Assembly: GCA_017504065.1 (NCBI GenBank)
Contig: JAFVRU010000176.1
Span: 1-48,333, forward strand
Direction of reading: 5' to 3'
DNA: 48,333 nt
Source of the DNA: Clostridia bacterium
GTDB lineage: Bacteria; Bacillota; Clostridia; Christensenellales; Borkfalkiaceae
Shown: one piece after another, positions 29,428 through 42,037 of the stretch
Layout of the letters: every line of letters begins with the position of its first letter
Numbering within the stretch: position 1 is the stretch's first letter
Notes under the pieces: model-generated
The model's input: the letters and a program-made list of their open reading frames with translations, nothing else
Told to the model about the DNA's origin: nothing
The model's database searches: none
Position numbers and translations under genes: made by a program

Positions 29428-30105
29428 TTATTCTTTGTTGCCCGTTTCAAACGGCTCTATACTTTTTTGAATCTCCGCTACCCGTTTTTTGTTCTTGCGG
29501 AACAAGGAGCGGAAGAACACCCACAATACTTCCAAAATCTGCAACGGTACGCCGACAAGGAATACACACCAAAGCCCGTCGTAATTGTTTCCCAAATCAA
29601 TGGAAATCGCGCGAGCCGTCAAATACGTCGCCACCAAAGATAGCCATATAAGCATTGTCGTTGCAACGAAACTGACGAAACGGTATTTCCAAATCGTGCC
29701 GTAAACTACTACGACCACGCAAGTCAGTACGCACGCGTAGATGAACGCCAACCACCATTCCCCGTCGGGTTTGAGTAGATGTAACGCCACAAAGAAGCAT
29801 ACCGCAACCAACCACACGATCCCGCAGGTAAGCAGCATGATCAATAAATGCAGTCCCGCCGTCTTCCGCTGTACCTGTACGGGCGTATCCTTGTCCAAGA
29901 ACGCGTTTAACGTTACGCCGAACAACTCCGCAAGCTGCACAAGCGTATACACGTCGGGCACGCCGTTCCCCGATTCCCATTTGGAGACGGATTTATCGGA
30001 GTAGTTGATCTTTTCCGCAAGCTCCGCTTGCGTCATTCCCGCCGCTTTTCGGTAATAGATTAAATTTTTGGCAATCTTTTGATTGATTTCGCTACTATTT
30101 TCCAT
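29428..30105 (-). CDS. XRE-family HTH transcriptional regulator with a C-terminal multi-pass membrane domain
   Basis: From the internal ATG (MENSSEINQKIAKNLIYYRKAAGMTQAELAEKINYSDKSVSKWESG) there is a Cro/C1-type HTH followed by about 4-5 hydrophobic helices. The ORF-track extension upstream of 30105 covers the promoter. Confidence 0.8.
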   Translation of the reverse strand: MENSSEINQKIAKNLIYYRKAAGMTQAELAEKINYSDKSVSKWESGNGVPDVYTLVQLAELFGVTLNAFLDKDTPVQVQRKTAGLHLLIMLLTCGIVWLVAVCFFVALHLLKPDGEWWLAFIYACVLTCVVVVVYGTIWKYRFVSFVATTMLIWLSLVATYLTARAISIDLGNNYDGLWCVFLVGVPLQILEVLWVFFRSLFRKNKKRVAEIQKSIEPFETGNKE

Positions 30106-30111
30106 AATACC

Positions 30112-30140
30112 ATTATACTGTTTTTTCAAGCTCCCGTCAA
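30112..30140 (-). promoter_or_regulatory. Sigma-A-type promoter giving a leaderless XRE-mcsA-mcsB-clpC transcript
   Basis: TTGACG (30135-30140), 17 nt, TATAAT (30112-30117). Only 6 nt (GGTATT) lie between the -10 and the ATG at 30103-30105. Confidence 0.6.
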
Positions 30141-30228
30141 GTATGTGGGGGATATTTCCCGTATTTTTCTCGCGAAACTGCCTGAAAAGCCCTTGATTTT
30201 CGGGAATTTTCACGATTTTCGGCAACAA

Positions 30229-30264
30229 AAAACGAACGGGTAAGGGCATCGCTCTTAGGGATTT
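30229..30264. repeat. Left inverted-repeat arm of the cassette
   Basis: Plus strand reads AAAACGAACGG-G-TAAGGGCATCGCTCTTAGGGATTT. Confidence 0.85.
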
Positions 30265-30278
30265 TTTAAGACATTATA

Positions 30279-30306
30279 AAAGAGTAGCAAAATATTGCTA
30301 CTCTTT
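30279..30306 (-). terminator. Hairpin/terminator at the distal end of the cassette
   Basis: Perfect 12-bp stem AAAGAGTAGCAA/TTGCTACTCTTT with a 4-nt loop. On the minus strand it runs into TTTTATAAT. Confidence 0.55.
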
Positions 30307-30379
30307 ACTTTTTGCTTTGCAAAACACACGACTTTCATTTGAAAGTATAGTGTGCTATACTTTTGATTGTAAAGTTTAA

Positions 30380-30853
30380 TTAGATTTGCAACAAAATTTC
30401 TTTTAACAATACTTTTGCTTGAATATCGTTGATTATATCAATTTCAGTGCCTGCATTATATTTGGTATTACATTGTTGCAAATTCGCTTTTGTATACCAT
30501 ATTATAGCTGTTTTATAGTGTCGTGATTTCTCTTCAACAAATTCTTTTGATTTGTCTTTTCCGTGCTTTTTATGACAACAAACTACAACTAATTCACAAT
30601 TATAGTAATCAAAAAATTCAAATGGATGTAGTAAATCTTTTTTCCTGTCACCAATAGAAGTTACACCAATAATATGTTTATTTATATCGAATATTGCAGA
30701 AAAATCTCCGTCATGGTTTTCTACATAATAGGCAACTCTTTTGTATGCAGAGCATAACTTTTGATACAATTTTGTTATAACCATTGTTTTGCCAACATTA
30801 GATTTGCCTTGTAATGCAATTATTTTAATCAAATTTATACTCCTTTTTTCCAT
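30380..30853 (-). CDS. Small orphan P-loop NTPase
   Basis: Walker A GKSNVGKT lies directly after an N-terminal beta-strand (IKIIALQ). The start is either ATG 30851-30853 or TTG 30830-32, the latter having AAGGAG 7 nt upstream. It overlaps the lipoprotein gene end by 8-29 nt. About 30% G+C. Confidence 0.55.
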   Translation of the reverse strand: MEKRSINLIKIIALQGKSNVGKTMVITKLYQKLCSAYKRVAYYVENHDGDFSAIFDINKHIIGVTSIGDRKKDLLHPFEFFDYYNCELVVVCCHKKHGKDKSKEFVEEKSRHYKTAIIWYTKANLQQCNTKYNAGTEIDIINDIQAKVLLKEILLQI

Positions 30854-32129
30854 ATCTATAATTATTTTGTTGCACAAAAGCAATGTTAATATCTTCAATC
30901 ATTAAACATTCTGTGATATTACCAAATTCATTTATATAATACCTATACCATCCTTGTGGGTTCTCAAATACAAAACTTTTAAATTCTGTACGATCGTATC
31001 CGTCCATAAATATTCTTGCATCAATGTATTCTACTTTTTCACCAATTATCACATCTGTTTTATTTGCCGGTAATCCTAGAAATGATGAACAATACTGCCA
31101 ACCATCACCTACAATATTATCATTAAATAAACCACAATTAATAGCGTTCCAGTGAATTTTAAATAATCTATAACAATTACTAAATGCATAAGGGCCTATT
31201 TTTTTTATACTGCTGGGTATAAAAATCTCTTCCAAACTATCACACCAAGAAAAAGCGTGCCCCTGTATTATTTCTATACCGTCACATATTATTACTTTTC
31301 TTAAAATTTTATCATCCTTAAAGGCGCTATTTCCTATTCTTACTGGAAATGAATTTATGAATGATGGAATGACCAGTAGGGTTTGTGTTTTATTTTTTCT
31401 TCCTGTTATTGTAGCTTCTCCGTTTGACACTTTATAATTAAAAACAGTTGAATCAGTTTTAATCCATTTTGCATAAATTGAAGAGCTTGTTTTAAAGTTC
31501 TGTTCTTTTTCCACAGGCAAACTACAATATTCATCAATAAACCAACCATAAAAGTATTTTTCAATATACTTATTTGTAGTTATGTCTTGTGGTTTTTTAG
31601 GTAATTCAATCTTGTAATTTTGTTTTTTACTTGTAAACAACGTAGCAAATAATTCACCATCCACATACGCTTTAATTTGAATTAATTTACTACCTTCATC
31701 AATAATTGTGTTTTGTTCAATGCATCCATATCTTGAACACAATGAGGTTTTTGTGCCATCTTTTTCAAAAGTAGCATTATCATCTGAAATATAATCATTA
31801 AAATCATGTCCTAATGCTGTTCCTAATTTTGTTTTAATATCCAAAGTTCCACAACCATTACCACAAATAGCTGTTTCCGTACCGTCAACTTCACACTTAG
31901 TGTCGTTATTATAGATATAATCCTTAAAGTCGTGGTCTAGTGCGTCAACGTAATCGTCAACGTAACTATCACCACAAGAGCAAGTATACGTTGTATATCC
32001 TTGTTCTGTACAAGTAGGTGCTGTAACACTAGTAGTATAACTATGCTCATGACCGCAAGCTGTTAAGCCTAATATAGAACATAAAGCCAAAGTTAACGTT
32101 AATATTGTCATTAAATGTTTTCTTTTCAT
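30825..32129 (-). CDS. Multi-domain surface lipoprotein: three Cys-rich modules, a Listeria-Bacteroides (Flg_new-like) repeat and BspA-type leucine-rich repeats
   Basis: The ATG at 32127-32129 has AAAGGAG upstream. Signal peptide with lipobox LGLTAC. Three H[ED][HF]...C...DGT.T..C..GC modules. YGWFIDEY...SSIYAKW. LRR_5-like IPSSIKKIGPYAFSNCYRL. Confidence 0.75.
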   Translation of the reverse strand: MKRKHLMTILTLTLALCSILGLTACGHEHSYTTSVTAPTCTEQGYTTYTCSCGDSYVDDYVDALDHDFKDYIYNNDTKCEVDGTETAICGNGCGTLDIKTKLGTALGHDFNDYISDDNATFEKDGTKTSLCSRYGCIEQNTIIDEGSKLIQIKAYVDGELFATLFTSKKQNYKIELPKKPQDITTNKYIEKYFYGWFIDEYCSLPVEKEQNFKTSSSIYAKWIKTDSTVFNYKVSNGEATITGRKNKTQTLLVIPSFINSFPVRIGNSAFKDDKILRKVIICDGIEIIQGHAFSWCDSLEEIFIPSSIKKIGPYAFSNCYRLFKIHWNAINCGLFNDNIVGDGWQYCSSFLGLPANKTDVIIGEKVEYIDARIFMDGYDRTEFKSFVFENPQGWYRYYINEFGNITECLMIEDINIAFVQQNNYRYGKKEYKFD

Positions 32130-32161
32130 AAATCTTCTCCTTTTTCTAGCAAAAATAAAAA

Positions 32162-32185
32162 GTGCGTCTACCGAAGTAAACGCAC
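32162..32185 (-). terminator. Intrinsic terminator inside the 5' leader of the lipoprotein gene
   Basis: Minus strand GTGCGTTTAC-TTCG-GTAGACGCAC (10 bp including one G-U), followed by TTTTTATTTTTGC. It lies about 20 nt upstream of the RBS. Confidence 0.65.
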
Positions 32186-32373
32186 AAAAACGCAAACTCC
32201 GATAGTCGCCAAACCAATTTCAAGCAAGTAAGGATAACCATACTAAAAACCTGATGGAATTTGCATTTTATCAAATTCATTGATTTTTAGTATGCTTAAA
32301 ATAAGTATAAATATCTCCCTAAAAAAGAAAATATCCCTACTTTTGCTTGTTATGAAATTGATTTGGCATAATT

Positions 32374-32402
32374 ATTATAACACTTATAAAAAATTTTATC
32401 AA
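32374..32402 (-). promoter_or_regulatory. Sigma-A-type extended -10 promoter inside the cassette
   Basis: TTGATA (32397-32402), 17 nt, TGtTATAAT (-10 at 32374-32379) on the minus strand, about 245 nt upstream of the lipoprotein ATG. Confidence 0.55.
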
Positions 32403-32424
32403 GCAGTTTTGTGTGGATAAAAGA

Positions 32425-32451
32425 AAACTCGACTTACCAAAAGTTGAGTTT
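32425..32451 (-). terminator. Intrinsic terminator downstream of proS (located inside the cassette)
   Basis: 11-bp stem AAACTCAACTT/AAGTCGAGTTT (one G-U), followed by TTTTCTTTTAT on the minus strand. Confidence 0.6.
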
Positions 32452-32467
32452 CAAAACTATTCAATTT

Positions 32468-32505
32468 AAATCCCTAAGAGCGACGCCCTTAATTCCGTTC
32501 GTTTT
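32468..32505. repeat. Right inverted-repeat arm of the cassette
   Basis: The reverse complement reads AAAACGAACGG-AAT-TAAGGGCGTCGCTCTTAGGGATTT. It ends 7 nt from the proS stop codon. Confidence 0.85.
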
Positions 32506-32512
32506 CTTTCTA

Positions 32513-33943
32513 TTAATAAGCTCTTGCGTAAACCAATACGTGTTCGGCTTTCTTGCCGCATACCGCGCACGTTTCCGCGCTTTCGCCTTCCGCGTATACA
32601 CGCGCCGTCGCCGCCGTTTGCTCCTTGATTTTATCTTCGCATTCACGGCAACCGCACCAGCCCGCTTTGACAAAATTCCCCGCTTCTACGCCCGCGAGAA
32701 TCCCTGCCATATCGTCCGCATACACAATCCGTTCGTCCCGACGTTTTCTCGCCGCTTCCAGCATATCCTTTTGCACCGTCTTCAGCAACGCTTTTACGCT
32801 ATCCGCAGCGCCTGCAAGCGGCAATTCCGTCTTTTCCAACGTATCCCGCCGCGCGCACAGCATCTTGCCCGCTTCAATATCGCGCGGTCCGAGTTCAATC
32901 CGTACAGGCACGCCTTTCATTTCCCATTCGTTGAACTTCCAACCAGGGCTATTATCACTATTATCGAGCGTTACTCGAATACCTGCCCCTTCCAATTCCG
33001 CTTTTAACGCTTCACAAGCTTCCACAACGCCGCCCTTTCTCGCCGCAATCGGAACGATTACGCATTGAATCGGCGCTACCACCGGCGGGAGCACCAAACC
33101 GCGTTCGTCGCCGTGCGTCATGATGATCGCGCCAATCAAGCGAGTGGAAACTCCCCAAGACGTCGTGTAAGCCGTTTTATGCGCTCCGTCGTTGTCCAAG
33201 AACTGAATATCGAACGCCGTAGCGAAATTCTGCCCCATATAGTGCGAAGTTCCGGCTTGCAAGCTCTTTCCGTCGCGCATCATCGCTTCCATGGTATACG
33301 TCGCAATCGCGCCCGCAAACTTTTCCTTTTCCGTTTTTCGACCCGTCATTACGGGAATTGCAAGACAATTTTCGGCAAATTCCTTATATACTTCGAGCAT
33401 TTGCAGCGTTTCTTCCTGCGCTTCTTCGGAAGAAGCGTGTACGGTATGCCCTTCCTGCCACAAGAACTCGCTCGTACGCAGGAACGGACGCGTCGTCTTT
33501 TCCCAACGCATAACGTTACACCATTGATTGACTTTCATCGGCAAATCTCGATAGGATTGAATCCATTTCCCGCACATCGTACCGATAATCGTTTCCGACG
33601 TAGGACGGATTGCCAAAGGCTCGGCAAGCGTTTCCCCGCCCGCTACGGTTACTACCGCTACTTCGGGCGCAAACCCTTCCACGTGTTCCGCTTCTTTGGT
33701 AAAATAACTCATCGGAATGAGCAAGGGGAAATACGCGTTTTCCACGCCTTGTTTCTTGAAACGGGTATTCAGTTCACTTTGAATACTCTCCCAAATCGCA
33801 TAGCCGTACGGACGAATGACCATCGTGCCTTTCACCGGTCCGTAATCGACCAATTTGGTCTTTAATACAACGTCCGTATACCATTGCGGGAAATCCGCGT
33901 TGATATCGGCAATTTGTTCTACGAATTGATTTTCTTTTGCCAT
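32513..33943 (-). CDS. proS: Proline--tRNA ligase (archaeal/eukaryote-like short type with C-terminal zinc-binding domain)
   Basis: 476 aa. FPQWYTDVVLKTKLVDYGPVKGTMVIRPYGYAIWE, class II motifs, and C-terminal CGCRECEDK...CAVCGK. Confidence 0.95.
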   Translation of the reverse strand: MAKENQFVEQIADINADFPQWYTDVVLKTKLVDYGPVKGTMVIRPYGYAIWESIQSELNTRFKKQGVENAYFPLLIPMSYFTKEAEHVEGFAPEVAVVTVAGGETLAEPLAIRPTSETIIGTMCGKWIQSYRDLPMKVNQWCNVMRWEKTTRPFLRTSEFLWQEGHTVHASSEEAQEETLQMLEVYKEFAENCLAIPVMTGRKTEKEKFAGAIATYTMEAMMRDGKSLQAGTSHYMGQNFATAFDIQFLDNDGAHKTAYTTSWGVSTRLIGAIIMTHGDERGLVLPPVVAPIQCVIVPIAARKGGVVEACEALKAELEGAGIRVTLDNSDNSPGWKFNEWEMKGVPVRIELGPRDIEAGKMLCARRDTLEKTELPLAGAADSVKALLKTVQKDMLEAARKRRDERIVYADDMAGILAGVEAGNFVKAGWCGCRECEDKIKEQTAATARVYAEGESAETCAVCGKKAEHVLVYARAY

Positions 33944-34006: not shown

Positions 34007-35500
34007 TCAATCCGCAAAAGGATCTTTATCAAAATCTACCAAACTGAACGGTTTCTTTTCTTCGACAACCTTATTCGACTGCGACACACCCGACTTTAAC
34101 ATCTTGCGGTTTTCTTTACGCAATTCGAACACGTTATTGCACGCAGGACAACAATGGTACGCCGAAGAATCCTTGACCGTCAACCGCTTTTTGCAAGTCG
34201 GGCAAAGAATTTGCCACTTGGAAATTTGCGTCGGCTTGCTTTCTTCTTTTTCTTCCACGACCGTTTCCACCAGGGGTTGCGGCTGCGGTTTCGGTTCTTC
34301 ACGGCTCGGCATCGGCAGTACGTAACAGGGTACGGGATACGGAGCGTGTACGTTCACAACCGGTGGCATCGGCATCGGATACGGCATATACGGGGGCATA
34401 GCCGGTTGCGGCAACGGTTGTTGTAACGGTTGTTGTGGTTGCTCCACCGCAGCAATTTCGTCCGTTTCGTCGTCCGACTTCTTCCAATTCGCCTTTAAAA
34501 CGCATTCCAAAACAAAGATTGCAAGCGCGATCCCCGCTACGATCAAGTACTCGTGGAAGTATTCCGCTTTCCCAGCTTCTTTTGTCTTCCACCAAATATA
34601 CCCGAAACACCCTGCGGCAAACAACGCCGTCAAAAGCGAGAATACTCGGAAATTCTTCATACCTTTTCCGTCTCTACCGAAGAAATTAAATTCCGTATTC
34701 GCCGTCGCGTGTTTCACGAGCACAAGCGCGCACAATACCGTTGCCGCTTGCAAGCCCAAATAAATCCATTCTTCCGTACTGCAAACCGTGAATTTGTCTT
34801 GGAGCATGACGGAATACACGTACAATCCGATATTGCTGATTTCCAAGAAGAAATACAAAATCCCGACAACCGCAGCAAGCTGCAATAAGTTCCCCAAGAA
34901 ATACAGGAATAACCCGTAGGGACGTGTTGCTTCTTCCACAGACGTACTGTTTTTAAACTTCCGAACTCCGCCGCCAACCAAGCCCGCGAGCCAATGCACT
35001 CCCAAGCCAACACCCAACGTCAGGTAGCCGAACAGCGTCAACTCCACATCCATAAACGCGTTCTCTTTCCAGCCAAAGAACAGGAAATACAGGAAATAGT
35101 AGATCACGTAGCACGCAAACGAGCCCGAGAAAATACTGCCCATTTTTTCCATTGCGTCGCGATTGCGATCCTTCCGAGCCATGGAGTGTTTATGTAAGCC
35201 CCCAAGACGGAATAAAGCTTTCAGAGCATTGAACAAAATTGCAATCAGGAACAACGATAAAAAGACGTAAAAATACGAGAATTTTGATACGTCAGGCAAC
35301 GCCTTGAAGAAATTCTTGTACCAATCTACGTAGTCTATTACCGAAAACGCTTCCCCATTAATTTTTAAGAATGGTAAAAACGCCAATACCGCCAAAGCGA
35401 TTGTGCCCAAGAAATAGATCCAACCGACGTTCCGCGCTTTATTCTGTTCCTTTCTGATCCGTCTTACCGCCATTTCACCGACCGATCCGTACGCTCTCAT
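34007..35500 (-). CDS. Paralog 1 of an uncharacterised polytopic membrane protein family; carries a Pro-rich linker and a C-terminal zinc ribbon
   Basis: 497 aa. Shares SIFSGSFA, GLGVHWLAGLVGG, GNLLQLAAVVGILYFFLE and LVKHATANTEF...GMKNFRVFS with the two upstream genes. Tail: PQQPLQQPLPQPAMPPYMPYPMPMPP, then CPTC-x14-CPAC. Confidence 0.7.
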   Translation of the reverse strand: MRAYGSVGEMAVRRIRKEQNKARNVGWIYFLGTIALAVLAFLPFLKINGEAFSVIDYVDWYKNFFKALPDVSKFSYFYVFLSLFLIAILFNALKALFRLGGLHKHSMARKDRNRDAMEKMGSIFSGSFACYVIYYFLYFLFFGWKENAFMDVELTLFGYLTLGVGLGVHWLAGLVGGGVRKFKNSTSVEEATRPYGLFLYFLGNLLQLAAVVGILYFFLEISNIGLYVYSVMLQDKFTVCSTEEWIYLGLQAATVLCALVLVKHATANTEFNFFGRDGKGMKNFRVFSLLTALFAAGCFGYIWWKTKEAGKAEYFHEYLIVAGIALAIFVLECVLKANWKKSDDETDEIAAVEQPQQPLQQPLPQPAMPPYMPYPMPMPPVVNVHAPYPVPCYVLPMPSREEPKPQPQPLVETVVEEKEESKPTQISKWQILCPTCKKRLTVKDSSAYHCCPACNNVFELRKENRKMLKSGVSQSNKVVEEKKPFSLVDFDKDPFAD

Positions 35501-35538
35501 AATATCTTCTCTCCCATTTTGGTTTTTTCTCTTTTGTT

Positions 35539-36651
35539 TTAAATTCTGCCTTCATAGCTGACGGTGTCAAAAATCACGCCCGTCCGCACTTTCTTTTTCT
35601 TACCCGTCAACGCGTCTTCGTCCGACGTCGCTTTCATATCCACGAAGAAATCGATCAAGAATCCCGCCAGCGCCAACGCCGATAAAACCGCAGGAATCCA
35701 AATTTTTCCGCCGTCAATCAGAGCCCAAACCGTCGCTCCGATCGCAACCAAGAACAGTAATACGGAATAACCGCGGAATTTCTTCGCTCCTTTCGCCTGT
35801 TTTCCCGCTTGATCGAATTCCCGATCCGACGTCGCATGCGAAACCAAGGCAAAGGTAAGCAACATCATCAAAACTTGCAACCCGCAATCGATCAAAAGCG
35901 TCTTATTTTCCAAAACGCCGTCCAAACCGCCCGCGACGAACGTTGCAATCGCTACGGGGAAGGAATTGCGCTCCAACAGCAAGAACCATACCGCCGCCAT
36001 AATACAAAGCTGTAATAAATTTCGGAAAAACGGCGCGATTCGTCCGATTTCCCGCTTGTGTTCTACGTAATCGGCTTTGGATACGTCGTAGCTAAACAAA
36101 CTCACTTTGCCGCCCATCAAGCCGCACCAGAAATGGAATACGAGCCCAACGCCGAGCGTTGCCGCGCCCAAAATTTGCATTTCCGCGTAGTCTTTGCCAC
36201 AGACCAAGAAAATCAATGCGTATAAGTTGCACACGCTCGCAAACGAGCCGGAAAAAATTCGCCCAATGCGTTTTAAATGCACGAAATTTTCGTTAAAACC
36301 GTGTTCCCGCGTTACCCGTTCCCGATACAGTCCGCCCCTTTGCGCAAAACAACGGAACAGATTGATGAGCAGCGTAGAGAGCAACAACGCATAGATACAA
36401 GCCGCGACAAACCCCGTCAAAGGCAGAGTTTGTAAGGGTTTTTGCCATTTCAACAAATCCCAAACGTGGAAAACGTCCAAAGCGACGTTCTTTCCATCGG
36501 CTACGTCTATTTTGACGAACGCAAACAGCGCCGCCAAGATCGGAAGCGCAATCACGCCCAACAAATATAACGTACCGACAATTTTCATTTTACGGTGCGC
36601 CGAACGGACTTTTTTCCGTAACGCAACCGCTTTCGAATTGGTTATCTGCAT
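35539..36651 (-). CDS. Paralog 2 of the uncharacterised polytopic membrane protein family (short tail)
   Basis: 370 aa. RIFSGSFA, GLVFHFWCGLMGGK, RNLLQLCIMAAVWFLLLE and LVSHATSDREF...GAKKFRGYS. Confidence 0.7.
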   Translation of the reverse strand: MQITNSKAVALRKKVRSAHRKMKIVGTLYLLGVIALPILAALFAFVKIDVADGKNVALDVFHVWDLLKWQKPLQTLPLTGFVAACIYALLLSTLLINLFRCFAQRGGLYRERVTREHGFNENFVHLKRIGRIFSGSFASVCNLYALIFLVCGKDYAEMQILGAATLGVGLVFHFWCGLMGGKVSLFSYDVSKADYVEHKREIGRIAPFFRNLLQLCIMAAVWFLLLERNSFPVAIATFVAGGLDGVLENKTLLIDCGLQVLMMLLTFALVSHATSDREFDQAGKQAKGAKKFRGYSVLLFLVAIGATVWALIDGGKIWIPAVLSALALAGFLIDFFVDMKATSDEDALTGKKKKVRTGVIFDTVSYEGRI

Positions 36652-36732
36652 AATTTTTCCCCATTATATCAAACGCACGCTCCCCCGAAGTTTGTCGGGG
36701 GAAACGCGCTCTTTATCGTTCGGTATGCCCAA

Positions 36733-38067
36733 TCAATAATTATATTCCATGTTGTTTTTTTGCGGATATCCATTCGGCTGACCCATAGGATATGCAGGGT
36801 TATAGTTCGCGGAAAGGAAATCGTCCAAATCCATTTCGTCGCTCGACATGGGAGCAGGCATAGGCTGTTCTTCCACCATATCCATCTTCCCCTTTATGCC
36901 CGCTTTTTTCAGCAGCTTTTCTTCTTTGCTGCGCGGCATGTTATGCATAATGAGTTCGATGATGAACATAACGAACGCAATCGCCGCGATGATCACGAAT
37001 TCCAAACTCGTATCCTTGATCGCTTTGATGAGTTCTTTTGCTTCGGAGAGTTTTTCCAACGGAGCCCACATTCCGAGAACAAATCCCGCTTCCCCGAACA
37101 AATATCTACAAGCGATTACGCCTACAACTGAGAGCACGGTGAAGAACGCGAATACGCGATAATTCTTCATTCCCGCGGCATGTTTGCCTTCAATACCGTA
37201 TTCCGTCGAAGCCGTCGCGTGCTTTACAAGCACCATAAGCCAAATAATCATAACGACTTGCACCGCCGTTGCGATGAAATAGAACATTTTGTCCTTATTC
37301 ATCACGTATTCTTTAAACGCGCCTTTTTGGAGCAACGGATCGATACAAACCGCAATCGTCGTCGCTTTCAAGAAGAAATACAGCATCGCGAACGCAGCCG
37401 CTACTTGCAACAAGTTCCGAATGAACGGCGCAACTCTGCCGCAATCCCGTTTTTGTTCGACGATTCCCACGCCTTCATGGATCACGAACAAGCTCGCCTT
37501 GCCGCCCCAGAGCCCGCAAAGGAAATGCACCGCAAGTCCGCCTGCGAGCACAAAAATCAACCATTTCACGTTTTCGAATTTCAACAATTCCAAGGGCAAG
37601 CCCGACAAAACGCAAATGACGAAATTGATCAAAATAATCACGGCGAACGAACCGGAGAAAATTCGGCTCAAATCTTCCATAGCATATACGTTACGGTTAA
37701 ACCCGTACGTTTTACTCGCCTTTTTCTTAAACAACCAGTTGAGTTTGGAAAGCGCCTTGAAAACGTTAATGAGCAACGTAAACAACAGCAACCCGTACAG
37801 GATGTAAGGTACGTAATGATAAATCCCCGCCGCCGTTTTCAAATTGTCGAGTTTCATACCTTTAAAGACTTTGTAAAATTCCGTTACTTGTAATTGGGAC
37901 AACGTGCCGATGTCCAAGAGCGGCAAACAAGCCGCCGCAGCCAACGCCATCGTTGCAAGCAAATACAAGATCCCGACGAACTTTGCGCGGGAACGCGTTT
38001 TTGCAATGCGCTTTTTTAAGTAAACGCTCTGTTTGGTCGGTACAGTTTTCACTTTGTACTTTCTCAT
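36733..38067 (-). CDS. Paralog 3 of the uncharacterised polytopic membrane protein family (extra helices, acidic/Pro-Tyr tail)
   Basis: 444 aa. RIFSGSFA, GLAVHFLCGLWGGK, RNLLQVAAAFAMLYFFLK and LVKHATASTEY...GMKNYRVFA. Confidence 0.7.
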   Translation of the reverse strand: MRKYKVKTVPTKQSVYLKKRIAKTRSRAKFVGILYLLATMALAAAACLPLLDIGTLSQLQVTEFYKVFKGMKLDNLKTAAGIYHYVPYILYGLLLFTLLINVFKALSKLNWLFKKKASKTYGFNRNVYAMEDLSRIFSGSFAVIILINFVICVLSGLPLELLKFENVKWLIFVLAGGLAVHFLCGLWGGKASLFVIHEGVGIVEQKRDCGRVAPFIRNLLQVAAAFAMLYFFLKATTIAVCIDPLLQKGAFKEYVMNKDKMFYFIATAVQVVMIIWLMVLVKHATASTEYGIEGKHAAGMKNYRVFAFFTVLSVVGVIACRYLFGEAGFVLGMWAPLEKLSEAKELIKAIKDTSLEFVIIAAIAFVMFIIELIMHNMPRSKEEKLLKKAGIKGKMDMVEEQPMPAPMSSDEMDLDDFLSANYNPAYPMGQPNGYPQKNNMEYNY

Positions 38068-38152
38068 AATATAGTCTCCTTGTTTTTTTGCCCTTATCCG
38101 TTTTGGAGATACGATCTTCGTCCTTTTTTACAAAAGATTTTCTCTCCTTTTT

Positions 38153-38181
38153 ATTATACATTTTTTTCTTTGTATTGTCAA
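38153..38181 (-). promoter_or_regulatory. Sigma-A-type extended -10 promoter of the three-paralog array
   Basis: TTGACA (38176-38181), 17 nt, TGTATAAT (-10 at 38153-38158), about 85 nt upstream of the paralog-3 ATG. Confidence 0.6.
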
Positions 38182-38244
38182 TATCCTTTCCGAAAAAAAA
38201 CAGGTATTTTCAAAAAAAGATTGTTTTCTTTCGGGAGTTTTTAC

Positions 38245-38781
38245 TCACTTGTGCTTTTTAAATTTCTTCTTATACGCGGCAATACATTTTTCAATGCATT
38301 CCATCGCTTCGTCGCGATGACAAATTTCCTTGACTGTCGTTTGTTTATGCTCCAAGGATTTATACACTTCGAAGAAGTGCATCATTTCATCGAATACATG
38401 CTTGGGCAATTCGTGAATATCGTAATAATTGTTATACGTAGGATCGCCGAACGGAATCGCAATAATTTTCTCATCAAGCGAACCGTTGTCGATCATTTTG
38501 ATCACGCCGATCGGATAACACCGCACGAGCGTAGTTGGATAAATCGTTTCTCCGCATAAAACCAAAACGTCCAAAGGATCTTCGTCTTCCGCGTACGTTT
38601 TGGGAATAAACCCGTAATTTGCGGGATAGACCGTGGACGTATATAATACCCGATCGAGCTTTAAGCAACCCGTTTCTTTGTCCAATTCATATTTTGTTTT
38701 GCAGCCTTTGGGAATCTCAATAAACGCTTCGAAACTTTTTGGCGTAATGCGATCCAAAGAAATGTCATGCCAAATATTCAT
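38245..38781 (-). CDS. ppa: Inorganic pyrophosphatase (family I)
   Basis: From the internal ATG (MNIWHDISL...): IEIPKGCKTKYELDKETG, YPANYGFIP and DPLDVLVL are family I PPase blocks. Confidence 0.9.
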   Translation of the reverse strand: MNIWHDISLDRITPKSFEAFIEIPKGCKTKYELDKETGCLKLDRVLYTSTVYPANYGFIPKTYAEDEDPLDVLVLCGETIYPTTLVRCYPIGVIKMIDNGSLDEKIIAIPFGDPTYNNYYDIHELPKHVFDEMMHFFEVYKSLEHKQTTVKEICHRDEAMECIEKCIAAYKKKFKKHK

Positions 38782-38812
38782 AGAGTGCACCTTCTTTTCT
38801 TTTGTTAGATAT

Positions 38813-38841
38813 ATTGTATCATATTTTACGTCGGATAGCAA
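38813..38841 (-). promoter_or_regulatory. Sigma-A-type promoter of ppa
   Basis: TTGCTA (38836-38841), 17 nt, TGaTACAAT (-10 at 38813-38818). Confidence 0.5.
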
Positions 38842-38976
38842 GAATTTTATAGGGAAAGAAAGGCTCGTTTTTTGTCTATTCTTGTTGCTTTTCTTCTCAT
38901 TAGTTTGCAAGTTCGAACTACTTCCACGCTAGGCGATCACTCCGCGCATGATGCCAATAGGGACACCAACGAGCCG

Positions 38977-39288: not shown

Positions 39289-39341
39289 CGCGCGAACCCG
39301 CGAAGAACTCGCGGCGTCGAGCGACCCACTCCAACGCCAAA
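39289..39341. repeat. Direct repeat A, copy 2
   Basis: 53 nt, 50/53 identical to 39146-39198. Abuts the tRNA-Ser terminator hairpin. Confidence 0.85.
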
Positions 39342-39371
39342 AGAACGGATAGGCGTTGCCTATCCGTTCTT
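39341..39371. terminator. Bidirectional hairpin terminator immediately 3' of tRNA-Ser
   Basis: 14-bp perfect stem AAGAACGGATAGGC/GCCTATCCGTTCTT with a 3-nt loop, flanked by A-run and T-run. Confidence 0.7.
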
Positions 39372-39372
39372 T

Positions 39373-39464
39373 TGGCGCAGAAGGCGGGATTCGAACCCGC
39401 GCTACGGTTTTCCCATACTACTCCCTTAGCAGGGGAGCCCCTTGAGCCTCTTGGGTACTTCTGC
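39373..39464 (-). tRNA. tRNA-Ser (anticodon GCU), CCA encoded
   Basis: Hand-folded. Acceptor GCAGAAG/CTTCTGC, anticodon stem CTCCC/GGGAG with loop CTGCTAA, long variable arm, T-arm GCGGG-TTCGAAT-CCCGC, discriminator G, CCA. Confidence 0.9.
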
Positions 39465-39629: not shown

Positions 39630-41063
39630 TTAGTGCGTGAACAAGAACATCAACAAGAAGATTGCCGTCAAAACATACGTAGCAACGGAAACTTCTTTCG
39701 CTTTGCCCGTGAATACTCTGATAAGCACGTACGAAACAAGGCCGAAGCCGATACCGAACGAAATGTTGTAAGTAAACGGCATCATCGCAATCGTAAGGAA
39801 TGCGGGAAGCGCGATCGCAGGATCAGTCCATTCGATATCACGAACGTTCACCATCATCAAGATACCAACGTAGATGAGCGCCGTAGCCGTTGCGCAAGAA
39901 GGAATTAATTGCGCGATCGGCGAAAGGAACATTGCAGCCGCGAACAAAATCGCTACTACGTAAGACGTAAGCGCCGTCTTACCGCCTGCAGCCGTACCAG
40001 CCGAAGATTCAACGAACGTCGTAACCGTGGACGTACCGAGAACCGCACCTGCACAAGTTGCAACAGCGTCCGCCATCATCGCTTTGTTAAGGTTGGGAAC
40101 TTCGCCCTTTTCGTCAAGCAAGTTACCGCTCTTGCAAGCGCCGTACAACGTACCAAGCGTATCGAACATATCTACAAGACAGAACGCCAAGGACGCCGTA
40201 ACAAGCGCAAGGATAAAGTCAAACATACCGTTTGCATCGATATAATCAGAGAAATCAAACCCATCCGTGAATACTTTCGCGAAAGACATTTCACCGAAAT
40301 CCTTGAACGCGTTAATCGGGTTATCAAACGTAATTGCTTTGAAATATGCCGTGCATGCATCGTTTCCGCAAGCTGCGCTGACGCCCATTACCGCATAATA
40401 AACTACCGCGGAGAACAAGATCCCCCAAAGAATAGCGCCTTTCACGCCTTTCTTAGACAATGCCGCAATCGCGATTACGCCAACGATAACAACAAGCAAG
40501 GGAATAATATCAAACCAAGCTCTCGTTTCGCTCAACAGGTTCATACTCCCCATCGTAACGCCCGTCGAAGGATCAGCGATTACCAAACCTGCATTTTGCG
40601 CGCCGATGAAAGCAATGAACAAACCGATACCTGCGGGGATCGCTTTCTTAATGTCTGCGGGAATCGCTTCAAAAATCTTCTTACGAAGCCCCGTAGCGGT
40701 AAGCAATATAAATACAAGACCGTCGATTAAAATGAACACCAACGTATTTGCATACGAGAACCCAAACCCGAAACACATCGTGAATACGAAGAATGCGTTC
40801 AACCCCATACCGGGCGCTTGCGCCAAAGGCAACCCTGCCAAAAGCCCGATCAGCACCGTGCCGATAATCGCGGAAAGCGCCGTAACGATATACATCGCAC
40901 CGTAGGATACAACCCCAAGGTTTGCAAACATGTCTGCATTTACCATAAGGATGTAAACCATCGCCATGAACGTCGTTAAGCCGGCAATGACTTCCGTCTT
41001 GACGTTCGTTCCCTTTTTCGACAACTCAAATTTCTTGTCGAGAAAAGCATTGAAATTAGCCAT
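39630..41063 (-). CDS. NCS2-family purine permease (adenine/guanine/hypoxanthine, AzgA/PbuG-like)
   Basis: 477 aa. N-terminus FLDKKFELSKKGTNVKTEVIAGLTTFMAMVYILMVN and about 12-13 TM segments are typical of COG2252 permeases. Confidence 0.9.
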   Translation of the reverse strand: MANFNAFLDKKFELSKKGTNVKTEVIAGLTTFMAMVYILMVNADMFANLGVVSYGAMYIVTALSAIIGTVLIGLLAGLPLAQAPGMGLNAFFVFTMCFGFGFSYANTLVFILIDGLVFILLTATGLRKKIFEAIPADIKKAIPAGIGLFIAFIGAQNAGLVIADPSTGVTMGSMNLLSETRAWFDIIPLLVVIVGVIAIAALSKKGVKGAILWGILFSAVVYYAVMGVSAACGNDACTAYFKAITFDNPINAFKDFGEMSFAKVFTDGFDFSDYIDANGMFDFILALVTASLAFCLVDMFDTLGTLYGACKSGNLLDEKGEVPNLNKAMMADAVATCAGAVLGTSTVTTFVESSAGTAAGGKTALTSYVVAILFAAAMFLSPIAQLIPSCATATALIYVGILMMVNVRDIEWTDPAIALPAFLTIAMMPFTYNISFGIGFGLVSYVLIRVFTGKAKEVSVATYVLTAIFLLMFLFTH

Positions 41064-41137
41064 AAAAAAACTCCTTAAAAAATTTTTTGATCTGAAATCG
41101 AATCATTTATCAACGAAACTTTTTCAAACCTATCATA

Positions 41138-41166
41138 ATTCTATCATATTTGACAAAATTCGTCAA
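41138..41166 (-). promoter_or_regulatory. Sigma-A-type promoter of the permease gene, with the -35 overlapping a palindrome
   Basis: TTGACG (41161-41166), 17 nt, TAGAAT (41138-41143). The palindrome TTTGAC-N7-GTCAAA is at 41149-41167. Confidence 0.5.
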
Positions 41167-41246
41167 ACGTTTTAGAGAACTTTTCTCAAAAAGCCGTCAA
41201 GTTTTTCACTCCCCACAGAAAATCGAGTCCTTTTTCTTTCAAACGC

Positions 41247-41283
41247 TTGACTTAAAAACTCCGATAGAGTATAATACTATCGG
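41247..41283 (+). promoter_or_regulatory. Consensus sigma-A promoter of nagB with an inverted repeat across the -10
   Basis: TTGACT (41247-41252), 17 nt, TATAAT (41270-41275). The inverted repeat CCGATAG (41261-41267) / CTATCGG (41277-41283) brackets the -10. Confidence 0.6.
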
Positions 41284-41314
41284 ACATAAAATAAAAATTA
41301 GGAGAGCTATGATT

Positions 41315-42037
41315 ATGAAAGTTATTATCACGGAAAACTACGATGAAATGAGCAAAAAAGCAGCGGAAATACTCATTGACGTTGTGAAAAAGAACCCGAA
41401 TGCGGTGCTCGGTCTTGCGACCGGTTCTAGCCCTATCGGCACGTATCAAAACATGATCAAGGATCATGAAGAAAACGGCACGTCTTACAAGAACGTAAGC
41501 TCGGTAAACTTGGATGAATACGTTGGATTGACCGCCGATCACGACCAAAGCTACGCGTACTTTATGCGGACGAACCTGTTCGATTCTATCGATATCGATC
41601 AAGCGAACACCAACCTGCCTTGCGGTGCGGCTGCCGATTTGCAAAAGGAATGCGACAGATATAACGCACTTTTGGAAACCAAGCAACAAGACGTACAAGT
41701 ATTGGGGCTCGGCTCGAACGGACACATTGGCTTCAACGAACCCAACACGCCGTTTGATTCCGTAACGCATATCGTTGATCTTACGGAAAATACGATCAAA
41801 GACAACTCCCGTTTGTTCGCTTCCATCGACGAAGTACCCCGTCAAGCGTTGTCTATGGGGATTAAGAATATTATGCAAGCGAAATCCATCGTCATGGTTG
41901 TTTCGGGTAAGAACAAAGCGGCGGCGGTAAAAGGCATGGTCAAGGGCGAGATCACTCCCGCGCTTCCTGCGTCTGTTTTACAGCTCCACCCTTGCGTTAC
42001 CGTTATTTGCGATAAGGACGCTGCAAGTTTGCTGTAA
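41315..42037 (+). CDS. nagB: Glucosamine-6-phosphate deaminase
   Basis: MKVIITENYDEMSKKAAE..., LGLATGSSP, NLDEYVGL and GLGSNGHIGFNEP. Start at the second ATG (41315), 8 nt after GGAGAG. Confidence 0.9.
   Translation: MKVIITENYDEMSKKAAEILIDVVKKNPNAVLGLATGSSPIGTYQNMIKDHEENGTSYKNVSSVNLDEYVGLTADHDQSYAYFMRTNLFDSIDIDQANTNLPCGAAADLQKECDRYNALLETKQQDVQVLGLGSNGHIGFNEPNTPFDSVTHIVDLTENTIKDNSRLFASIDEVPRQALSMGIKNIMQAKSIVMVVSGKNKAAAVKGMVKGEITPALPASVLQLHPCVTVICDKDAASLL

Follow-up and report, generated by a model that had tools for sequence, protein, structure and literature searches.

How did a low-G+C segment with two genes of its own come to stand between proS and the operon of an XRE regulator, McsA, McsB and ClpC in a Clostridia bacterium, and what could have moved it there? 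The question arises from a stretch of 48,333 nucleotides (contig JAFVRU010000176.1 of assembly GCA_017504065.1, forward strand), which was analysed as a whole and is called the window below, and in whose minus strand proS (32513-33943) is followed by the segment and then by the genes of a membrane-anchored XRE regulator (29428-30105), mcsA, mcsB and clpC. A first-pass annotation, made from the sequence alone, had described a cassette bounded by 36/38-bp inverted repeats and had offered two readings of it, a non-autonomous insertion cassette moved in trans and an invertible segment of the Gin/Hin/Cin kind. We find that the cassette proper is the 2,251-bp segment 30241-32491 and that it is a horizontally spread, mobile gene cassette without a transposase of its own. 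The cassette probably belongs to the non-autonomous transposable elements of the mobile-insertion-cassette type: an enzyme acting in trans would move it into terminator loops, and here it inserted at a TA within the apical loop of the proS terminator.

The two arms of the cassette, 30241-30264 on the plus strand and 32468-32491 on the minus strand, are 24 nt long each and match at 23 of 24 positions (96% complementary), and their pattern occurs twice in the window and not once in 100 dinucleotide-preserving shuffles. Outward of the arms, past a 1-vs-3-nt indel, AAAACGAACGG is read on both sides (30229-30239 and 32495-32505). The inverted repeats are hence present where they had been reported, the 24-nt arms and the outer 11-nt match alike, but their description as a single 36/38-bp unit had to be abandoned, as that repeat is a composite of an element arm and a split host proS terminator. 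Since the outer 11 nt are the halves of the host terminator stem and the indel is a remnant of its loop, the repeat owned by the element is the inner 24 nt only, TAAGGGCRTCGCTCTTAGGGATTT. The composition switch described at the arms is borne out, with 29.4% G+C within the cassette and 49.7% in the remainder of the window, and the cassette is the deepest and longest low-G+C run across the 48 kb. The junction between proS and the cassette was found in three separate assemblies (L001, L002 and L003; loci outside the window are given as L numbers throughout). The arms and the host sequences that adjoin them are as follows.

30241..30264, plus strand: left terminal inverted repeat, TAAGGGCATCGCTCTTAGGGATTT, defined by the arm comparison, the shuffle test and the family alignment.
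32468..32491, minus strand: right terminal inverted repeat, TAAGGGCGTCGCTCTTAGGGATTT (read inward), a 24-mer kept at 24 element ends in other loci, whose first TA is a possible duplicated target.
32495..32505, minus strand: 5' half of the split proS terminator stem, AAAACGAACGG, host DNA, which aligns with the intact AAACGGACGG-loop-CCGTCCGTTTTTT of the cassette-free L023, L024 and L025.
32492..32494, minus strand: loop residues AAT of the former proS terminator, which explain the 1-vs-3-nt indel.
30227..30240, minus strand: 3' half of the split proS terminator, C followed by CCGTTCGTTTTTT, host DNA, from comparison with cassette-free relatives and site reconstruction.
30112..30140, minus strand: host promoter of the XRE-mcsA-mcsB-clpC operon, TTGACG-17-TATAAT, kept in cassette-free relatives and untouched by the insertion.

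The split of the proS terminator is evident from relatives that have no cassette at this position. In L023, L024 and L025, whose ProS is 94-95% identical, proS is directly followed by XRE-mcsAB-clpC and the terminator is intact, reading AAACGGACGG-TTATAT-CCGTCCGTTTTTT in L023 and AAACGGACGG-AAATCA-CCGTCCGTTTTTT in L024 and L025, and these intact terminators fold at -16.3 and -15.7 kcal/mol with z about -4. The more distant L026 (ProS 89%) also has no cassette and carries a different hairpin at the same spot, so that the proS/XRE site is empty in all four close relatives, L023-L026. The host proS terminator has the form AAACGRACGG-loop-CCGTYCGTTTTTT, and the minus strand of the window reads AAACGAACGG-AAT-[TAAGGG...CCCTTA]-C-CCGTTCGTTTTTT. 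The empty site reconstructed from it is AAAACGAACGGAATTACCCGTTCGTTTT, whose loop, AAT(TA)C, comprises 6 nt, which is also the loop length in the relatives (AAATCA, TTATAT). The distances given earlier hold as well, as 7 nt separate the proS stop codon (32513-32515) from the end of the right repeat in its first, longer delimitation and the left arm, placed about 90 nt from the promoter of the downstream operon, lies 89 nt from its -35 box at 30140. The hairpin that now sits after proS is that of the right end of the cassette.

Mobility of such elements is documented by their different occupancy of one site and by the recurrence of one element at different sites. L018 belongs to the same species as the window (98% nucleotide identity across proS, the 4 kb upstream of it and the XRE-mcsB region), and in L018 exactly the same position of the loop is occupied by another element, of 810 bp, with a 144-aa membrane protein as cargo and other arm variants. 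From end to end, this element has 97% identity to that of L017, which stands after an EamA-type transporter gene in another organism. Likewise, the window element and that of L035 share 93.4% identity over 2.25 kb, the L035 copy lying inside another terminator hairpin on a contig with flanks of 31% G+C, and the low G+C of the window cassette is accounted for by this near-identical copy in a low-G+C host. Recurrence of the arms, empty sites and the same element at unrelated sites thus support the proposal of a horizontally acquired, non-autonomous insertion cassette.

Scanning one genome per species with the query TAAGGGCNTCGCTCTTAGGGA revealed 14 loci, 13 of which are in Christensenellaceae, Candidatus Scatosoma and unclassified Clostridia metagenome-assembled genomes, several from animal-gut samples, and a metagenome scan added four further loci. 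The arm, for which a search in other genomes had been proposed, therefore recurs in at least 13 others. The Geobacteraceae locus L010 was discarded, as it has no conserved inner flank, no A-run and a normal G+C; with 20 specified bases, the collection should yield about one match by chance. True hits are conserved over about 100-135 nt inward of the arm and have a different outward flank each time. A left-type end consists of the arm, a bidirectional terminator hairpin, CTTTTTGCTTTGCAAAACACACGACTT and then AAGTATAGTGTGCTACACTTTTG, and the stem of its hairpin occurs in three fully compensated variants, GGATAGC/GCTATCC, GACTAACG/CGTTAGTC and GAGTAGC/GCTACTC. A right-type end consists of the arm, the hairpin ACTCGACTT/AAGTCGAGT with a T-run, and then a promoter at a fixed position, and a second right type of end combines the arm with a different terminator hairpin. 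The arm itself varies in the family, as in GCGCTCTTCCCRTAGGGAWTT. Both modules are found in the window.

32374..32467, minus strand: right-end module, an inward-facing terminator-like hairpin (about 32427-32449) with a T-run, then the cassette promoter; kept in position and largely in sequence in L009, L012, L017, L018, L020 and L035 with other cargo.
30265..30372, plus strand: left-end module, a bidirectional terminator hairpin (30279-30306), then a conserved block, CTTTTTGCTTTGCAAAACACACGACTT (30308-30334), and a second hairpin, AAAGTATAGTGTGCTATACTTT (about 30341-30362); about 135 nt are kept among elements of unrelated cargo, and the first hairpin is the one with the three compensated stem variants.

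The cassette promoter, near consensus, reads TTGATA-17-TATAAT with a TG upstream (32402-32374, minus strand). It is one of the parts that the first-pass annotation had recognised within the cassette, the others being a structured leader, two overlapping genes and hairpins at both ends, and all of these are confirmed. At the small end of the family, positions 5265-5584 of L011 hold a non-coding, decayed derivative of about 320 bp, the size of a miniature inverted-repeat transposable element (MITE; under about 500 bp), whose second arm is the variant GTCGCTCTTCCCATAGGGAAT, also present in L034. This shared variant suggests a wider family that the exact-pattern scans missed. L011 also has at least six short GC-stem hairpins in a run, with 4-nt loops. 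Many contigs end a few dozen to about 250 nt inside the arm or within the leader (L012, L014, L020, L021, L022, L029, L030, L031 and L034); such ends are probably forks of the assembly graph at conserved ends around variable content, the family being under-assembled in metagenome-assembled genomes.

The landing site in the proS terminator is not peculiar to the window, and five independent sites could be compared, that of the window and L018, counted as one, and those of L008, L017, L035 and L011, with the following flanks.

L008: left flank AAAAAGACAAGG, right flank CCTTGTCTTTTTT.
L017: left flank AAAAAGCCGT, right flank ACGGCTTTTTT.
L035: left flank AAAAGACTC, right flank GAGTCTTTTTTT.
L011: left flank AAAAACGCCC, right flank GGGCGTTTTTT.

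At all five, the flanks form complementary stems that are unrelated in sequence from site to site and lie between an A-run and a T-run. When the empty sites of window/L018, L008, L017 and L035 are reconstructed, each folds as a terminator whose apical loop contains TA. AAAA followed by 6-11 nt precedes 21 of the 22 ends; among all TA sites of these loci the share is 8.4% (binomial P about 5e-22, with ends that are not fully independent). Both junctions have TA in four of four complete elements with two standard arms; the decayed copy of L011, the fifth site, has no TA at its variant arm. Host transcription enters via the right end in the window and in L035 and via the left end in L017, hence both orientations occur, and an inward-facing terminator is present at both ends of the element. 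The family thus appears to home to terminator loops in gut Clostridia. As to a target-site duplication, of which none had been seen, the earlier statement stands for a long direct duplication but not for a short one, since TA at both junctions makes a 2-bp duplication possible on sequence grounds. A duplication of 3 or 4 bp (TNA, TTAA) was dismissed, as the two sides do not agree in their third and fourth flanking bases.

What is carried between the shared ends differs widely. In the window, the cargo and its leader are the following.

30825..32129, minus strand: cargo gene 1, a 434-aa lipoprotein with the lipobox LTAC and BspA-type leucine-rich repeats (Pfam LRR_5, E = 1.4e-12).
30380..30853, minus strand: cargo gene 2, a small P-loop protein overlapping gene 1, of 150 aa from TTG at 30832 or 157 aa from ATG at 30853.
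32130..32373, minus strand (in the 248-nt delimitation, 32125-32372): structured 5' leader of the cargo operon (minimum free energy -80.9 kcal/mol, z = -8.1).

Surface proteins with LRR_5, Big_2 or Flg_new domains, each accompanied by the P-loop gene, are the cargo of the window element, L029, L030, L031, L034 and L035, while the 144-aa membrane protein is carried in L013, L017 and L018, a TM1586-type nitroreductase-like protein in L007, a DnaB_C-like ATPase in L008, a WYL-WCX protein with a 336-aa protein in L016, an HsdS-like fragment in L005 and a P-loop kinase-like protein in L012. The small P-loop proteins form a very small family of 12 clusters (P0131-P0142), and their gene lies directly 3' of a surface-protein gene wherever the neighbour was read. 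An AlphaFold model of the protein has a predicted local distance difference test value (pLDDT) of 88 and a predicted template modelling score (pTM) of 0.86, and a fold search of the PDB with this model returned no chain at E below 0.01. A role of the protein as a helper ATPase of transposition was rejected as unsupported, given a confident model without a fold match.

The 3' part of the leader contains a terminator-like hairpin (32185-32162) and a competing alternative pairing, an arrangement that resembles the expression platform of a riboswitch or attenuator. Three homologous leaders (window; L035, 2925-3166; L033, 6880-7108) share eight compensatory pairs, a long closing stem and the invariant hairpin AUGAAUUUGAUAAAAUGCAAAUUCC. 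Rfam searches of the region and of the whole window gave no match for the leader or the ends, a single tRNA being the sole hit. The leader also precedes LRR_5/Flg_new and P-loop gene pairs without arms in L033 and L042. The unit of leader, LRR_5 gene and P-loop gene is armless in L033 (6700-9320), and its arm is reduced to AAATCCCTAAGAG in L039 (1740-1930) and L040 (1105-1300). Such armless or cut-arm units are either decayed insertions or an ancestral resident locus that supplied the captured cargo.

As the first-pass annotation had it, there is no transposase or recombinase in the cassette, and Pfam searches found none in the other open reading frames tested either, which cover nearly the whole 48-kb window. 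The cargo open reading frames of other family members include no transposase or recombinase, and no transposase flanked by near-exact arms was found in the 14 genome loci, the four metagenome loci or the viral, plasmid and phage collections. Searches of IMG/VR viral contigs with the exact and the degenerate arm pattern gave no hits, and the whole small element and a hypothetical palindrome of its joined ends had no meaningful match in plasmid and phage collections; a 35-nt match in the phage contig MT836745.1 was set aside, since it covers only a common promoter/leader motif with no arm nearby. By analogy with mobile insertion cassettes, we infer that the cassette is mobilised in trans. An enzyme encoded elsewhere would recognise the 24-bp repeats and insert the element specifically into the loops of A-tract/stem/T-tract terminator hairpins, and interchangeable cargo would be carried between the shared ends, namely the 24-bp repeats, the right-end terminator and promoter module and the left-end module of about 135 nt. 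Since the element has its own terminator at each end, termination of the upstream host gene would be restored and the cargo transcriptionally insulated. The arm contains an internal 7-bp hairpin that is not kept in the arm variants, and this loss points to recognition of double-stranded DNA.

As for the chemistry, a DDE (Asp-Asp-Glu) cut-and-paste enzyme duplicating TA, as in IS630/Tc1-mariner elements, is our tentative choice, held with somewhat less than even confidence. That the enzyme reads DNA structure and not sequence, be it an extruded or single-stranded terminator hairpin or the shape of an A-tract/dyad/T-tract, is a more doubtful proposition. The main alternative is that the same cassette is moved by a site-specific recombinase, likeliest of the serine type (IS607- or Tn4451-like), by which a circle would be excised, whose joined ends form a perfect palindrome of about 50 bp centred on TA, with crossover at the TA of a palindromic terminator. 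Such a route would suit the invariant TA at both junctions of the four complete elements, which could be a 2-bp crossover dinucleotide, and the architecture that joined ends and target have in common (A-tract, dyad, TA, dyad, T-tract); the two orientations observed could also result from a palindromic crossover at TA, and the presence of two different elements at an identical position in one species is in line with it. However, no recombinase was found, the target stems have no common sequence, TA and the A- or T-tract are 6 to 11 nt apart, unequally on the two sides, which does not sit well with a dimer bound on fixed half-sites, and long, well-conserved terminal inverted repeats together with a MITE-sized derivative (L011) are more typical of DDE elements, so we regard this route as unlikely.

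Two further explanations were considered. If insertion were random or merely AT-targeted, the position in terminator loops would result from purifying selection or from homologous recombination between strains, and here survivorship bias, by which only fixed insertions are visible in assembled genomes, and the low copy number speak in its favour. Yet loops of 4-6 nt are a tiny share of neutral intergenic DNA, while all five sites and 21 of 22 ends are terminator-like, the fit to terminators holds even in hosts of 30% G+C, where TA is everywhere, and the same TA was hit by two different elements in one species. Flank-mediated recombination cannot explain the spread, since one element has unrelated flanks in different organisms, and we give this explanation very little credence. 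The invertible element of the Gin/Hin/Cin kind, for which the 24-36-bp repeats would be crossover sites of a recombinase encoded elsewhere, has in its favour that inverted repeats flank the segment, but it found no support: relatives have a clean empty site, the same repeats enclose unrelated cargo at unrelated sites, the proS-side junction has one orientation in L001, L002 and L003 and in strain L018, and none of the tested open reading frames, which cover nearly the whole window, encodes a recombinase. Moreover, flipping a cassette that brings its own promoter and is closed by a terminator at each end would have no regulatory effect, and this possibility is the most remote of all.

Several observations count against a trans-mobilised cassette that homes to terminator loops, the reading that we prefer. 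No empty allele was found within the window's own species, nor was an autonomous partner with matching ends. The copy number is low, about one element per hit genome, which is unusual for actively transposing elements. Copies without arms (L033, L042) or with a truncated arm (L039, L040) occur, and the gene pair exists also as ordinary resident DNA. The TA may belong to the repeat itself, its duplication being backed only by the natural 6-nt length of the reconstructed loop. IS630/Tc1-type enzymes are not known to require hairpins, so that the favoured chemistry leaves the target preference unexplained.

Physiologically, such elements would provide a compact, self-insulated means for the spread of accessory genes among uncultured gut Clostridia with G+C contents of 30% and 50%, leaving host genes and operon termination undisturbed. 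Among the cargo there are surface adhesin-like proteins, redox enzymes and defence-like genes. Insertion seems to follow one rule, TA in the loop of a bidirectional terminator with unrelated stems; a preference so sharply defined is uncommon, and it points to a choice of target by the transposase or recombinase that depends on structure. Should a structure-reading enzyme exist, it would amount to a natural 'safe-harbour' gene delivery, in which the cassette brings its promoter and replaces the terminator that it splits, and to an exchange of chromosomal cassettes in gut Clostridia parallel to integrons. These cassettes go unrecognised in metagenome-assembled genomes because contigs break at their ends and annotation pipelines see no mobile-element gene.

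Some further features of the window lie outside the cassette. A perfect 20-bp inverted repeat with a 3-nt loop (CGCCAAAAGAACGGATAGGC / GCCTATCCGTTCTTTTGGCG, 39335-39377) abuts the only tRNA gene of the window (39376-39464), and its stem is unusually long for a terminator. Upstream of proS, at 34007-38067 on the minus strand, there are three consecutive open reading frames of 497, 370 and 444 aa without a Pfam match, the first two of which are kept in L018, L023 and L024, and the 497-aa product has a proline-rich stretch and a C-terminal CxxC...CxxC motif. Further G+C dips to 0.32-0.34 occur at 37801-38900, in the region of a pyrophosphatase gene, and at 40901-41500, which is intergenic and upstream of a permease gene; neither dip contains inverted repeats like the cassette arms.

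Full-text searches of the literature gave no account of cassettes that home to terminator loops, and the nearest known systems each share a part of the features described here. Mobile insertion cassettes are defined by two inverted repeats with passenger genes and no transposase inside (PMC3913671). Those known, such as MIC231 of Bacillus cereus, mobilised by the IS231A transposase, and the 'mic' elements of qnrD/qnrS2, resemble the present family in repeat-bracketed passenger genes, presumed movement in trans and differing cargo between the same ends. They differ in that the present elements have no known parent insertion sequence (IS) with matching ends, at most a TA duplication, a target that is strictly the loop of an intrinsic terminator, ends with built-in terminators and a promoter, and a location in chromosomes of uncultured gut Clostridia. 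Correia elements of Neisseria and RUP of pneumococcus are MITEs derived from IS630/Tc1-mariner elements, with TA duplication, repeats of about 24-26 bp and ends with promoter or terminator activity. The present family is like them in being non-autonomous with TA-flanked inverted repeats, and L011 contributes a short non-coding derivative; however, the Correia and RUP elements are short, non-coding, present in high copy and not confined to hairpin loops, while here a genome has about one copy, and the genes that most members carry amount to 0.5 to more than 5 kb.

Extragenic, hairpin-forming landing sites are also used by autonomous IS elements. IS1397 and ISKpn1 target the loops of repetitive extragenic palindromic (REP) sequences, or palindromic units (PU), and IS1630 of the IS30 family duplicates inverted repeats or terminators. 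IS110/IS1111 elements likewise sit in REP sequences (PMC12288879). Unlike the present elements, all of these are autonomous; moreover, IS1630 duplicates its target inverted repeat as a whole, while in the present family the hairpin is split and each flank retains one stem half, and IS110 recognises a specific sequence via a bridge RNA, while the present stems are unrelated to one another in sequence. Two further kinds of element were considered and rejected, the group IIC intron, since there is no group II hit in Rfam, no reverse transcriptase domain and an insertion inside the loop instead of just downstream of a terminator, and a palindrome-associated transposable element (PATE) of the IS200/IS605 type, since the ends are true inverted repeats, the arm hairpin is lost in variants and the 5' flanks vary except for TA, where a PATE would have subterminal hairpins on one strand and a conserved target of 4-5 nt 5' of its left end. 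Integron cassettes and the pdif modules moved by XerCD are similar in being small, promiscuous, recombinase-less cassettes, in the use of one site by several of them and in hairpin-forming sites. Integron cassettes, however, have a single attC, are usually promoterless and need attI and IntI, whereas the elements described here have two inverted arms and their own promoter, with no integrase and no array; and pdif modules need a pre-existing dif-like site, whereas the empty sites here have no arm-like sequence and consist of a terminator only.

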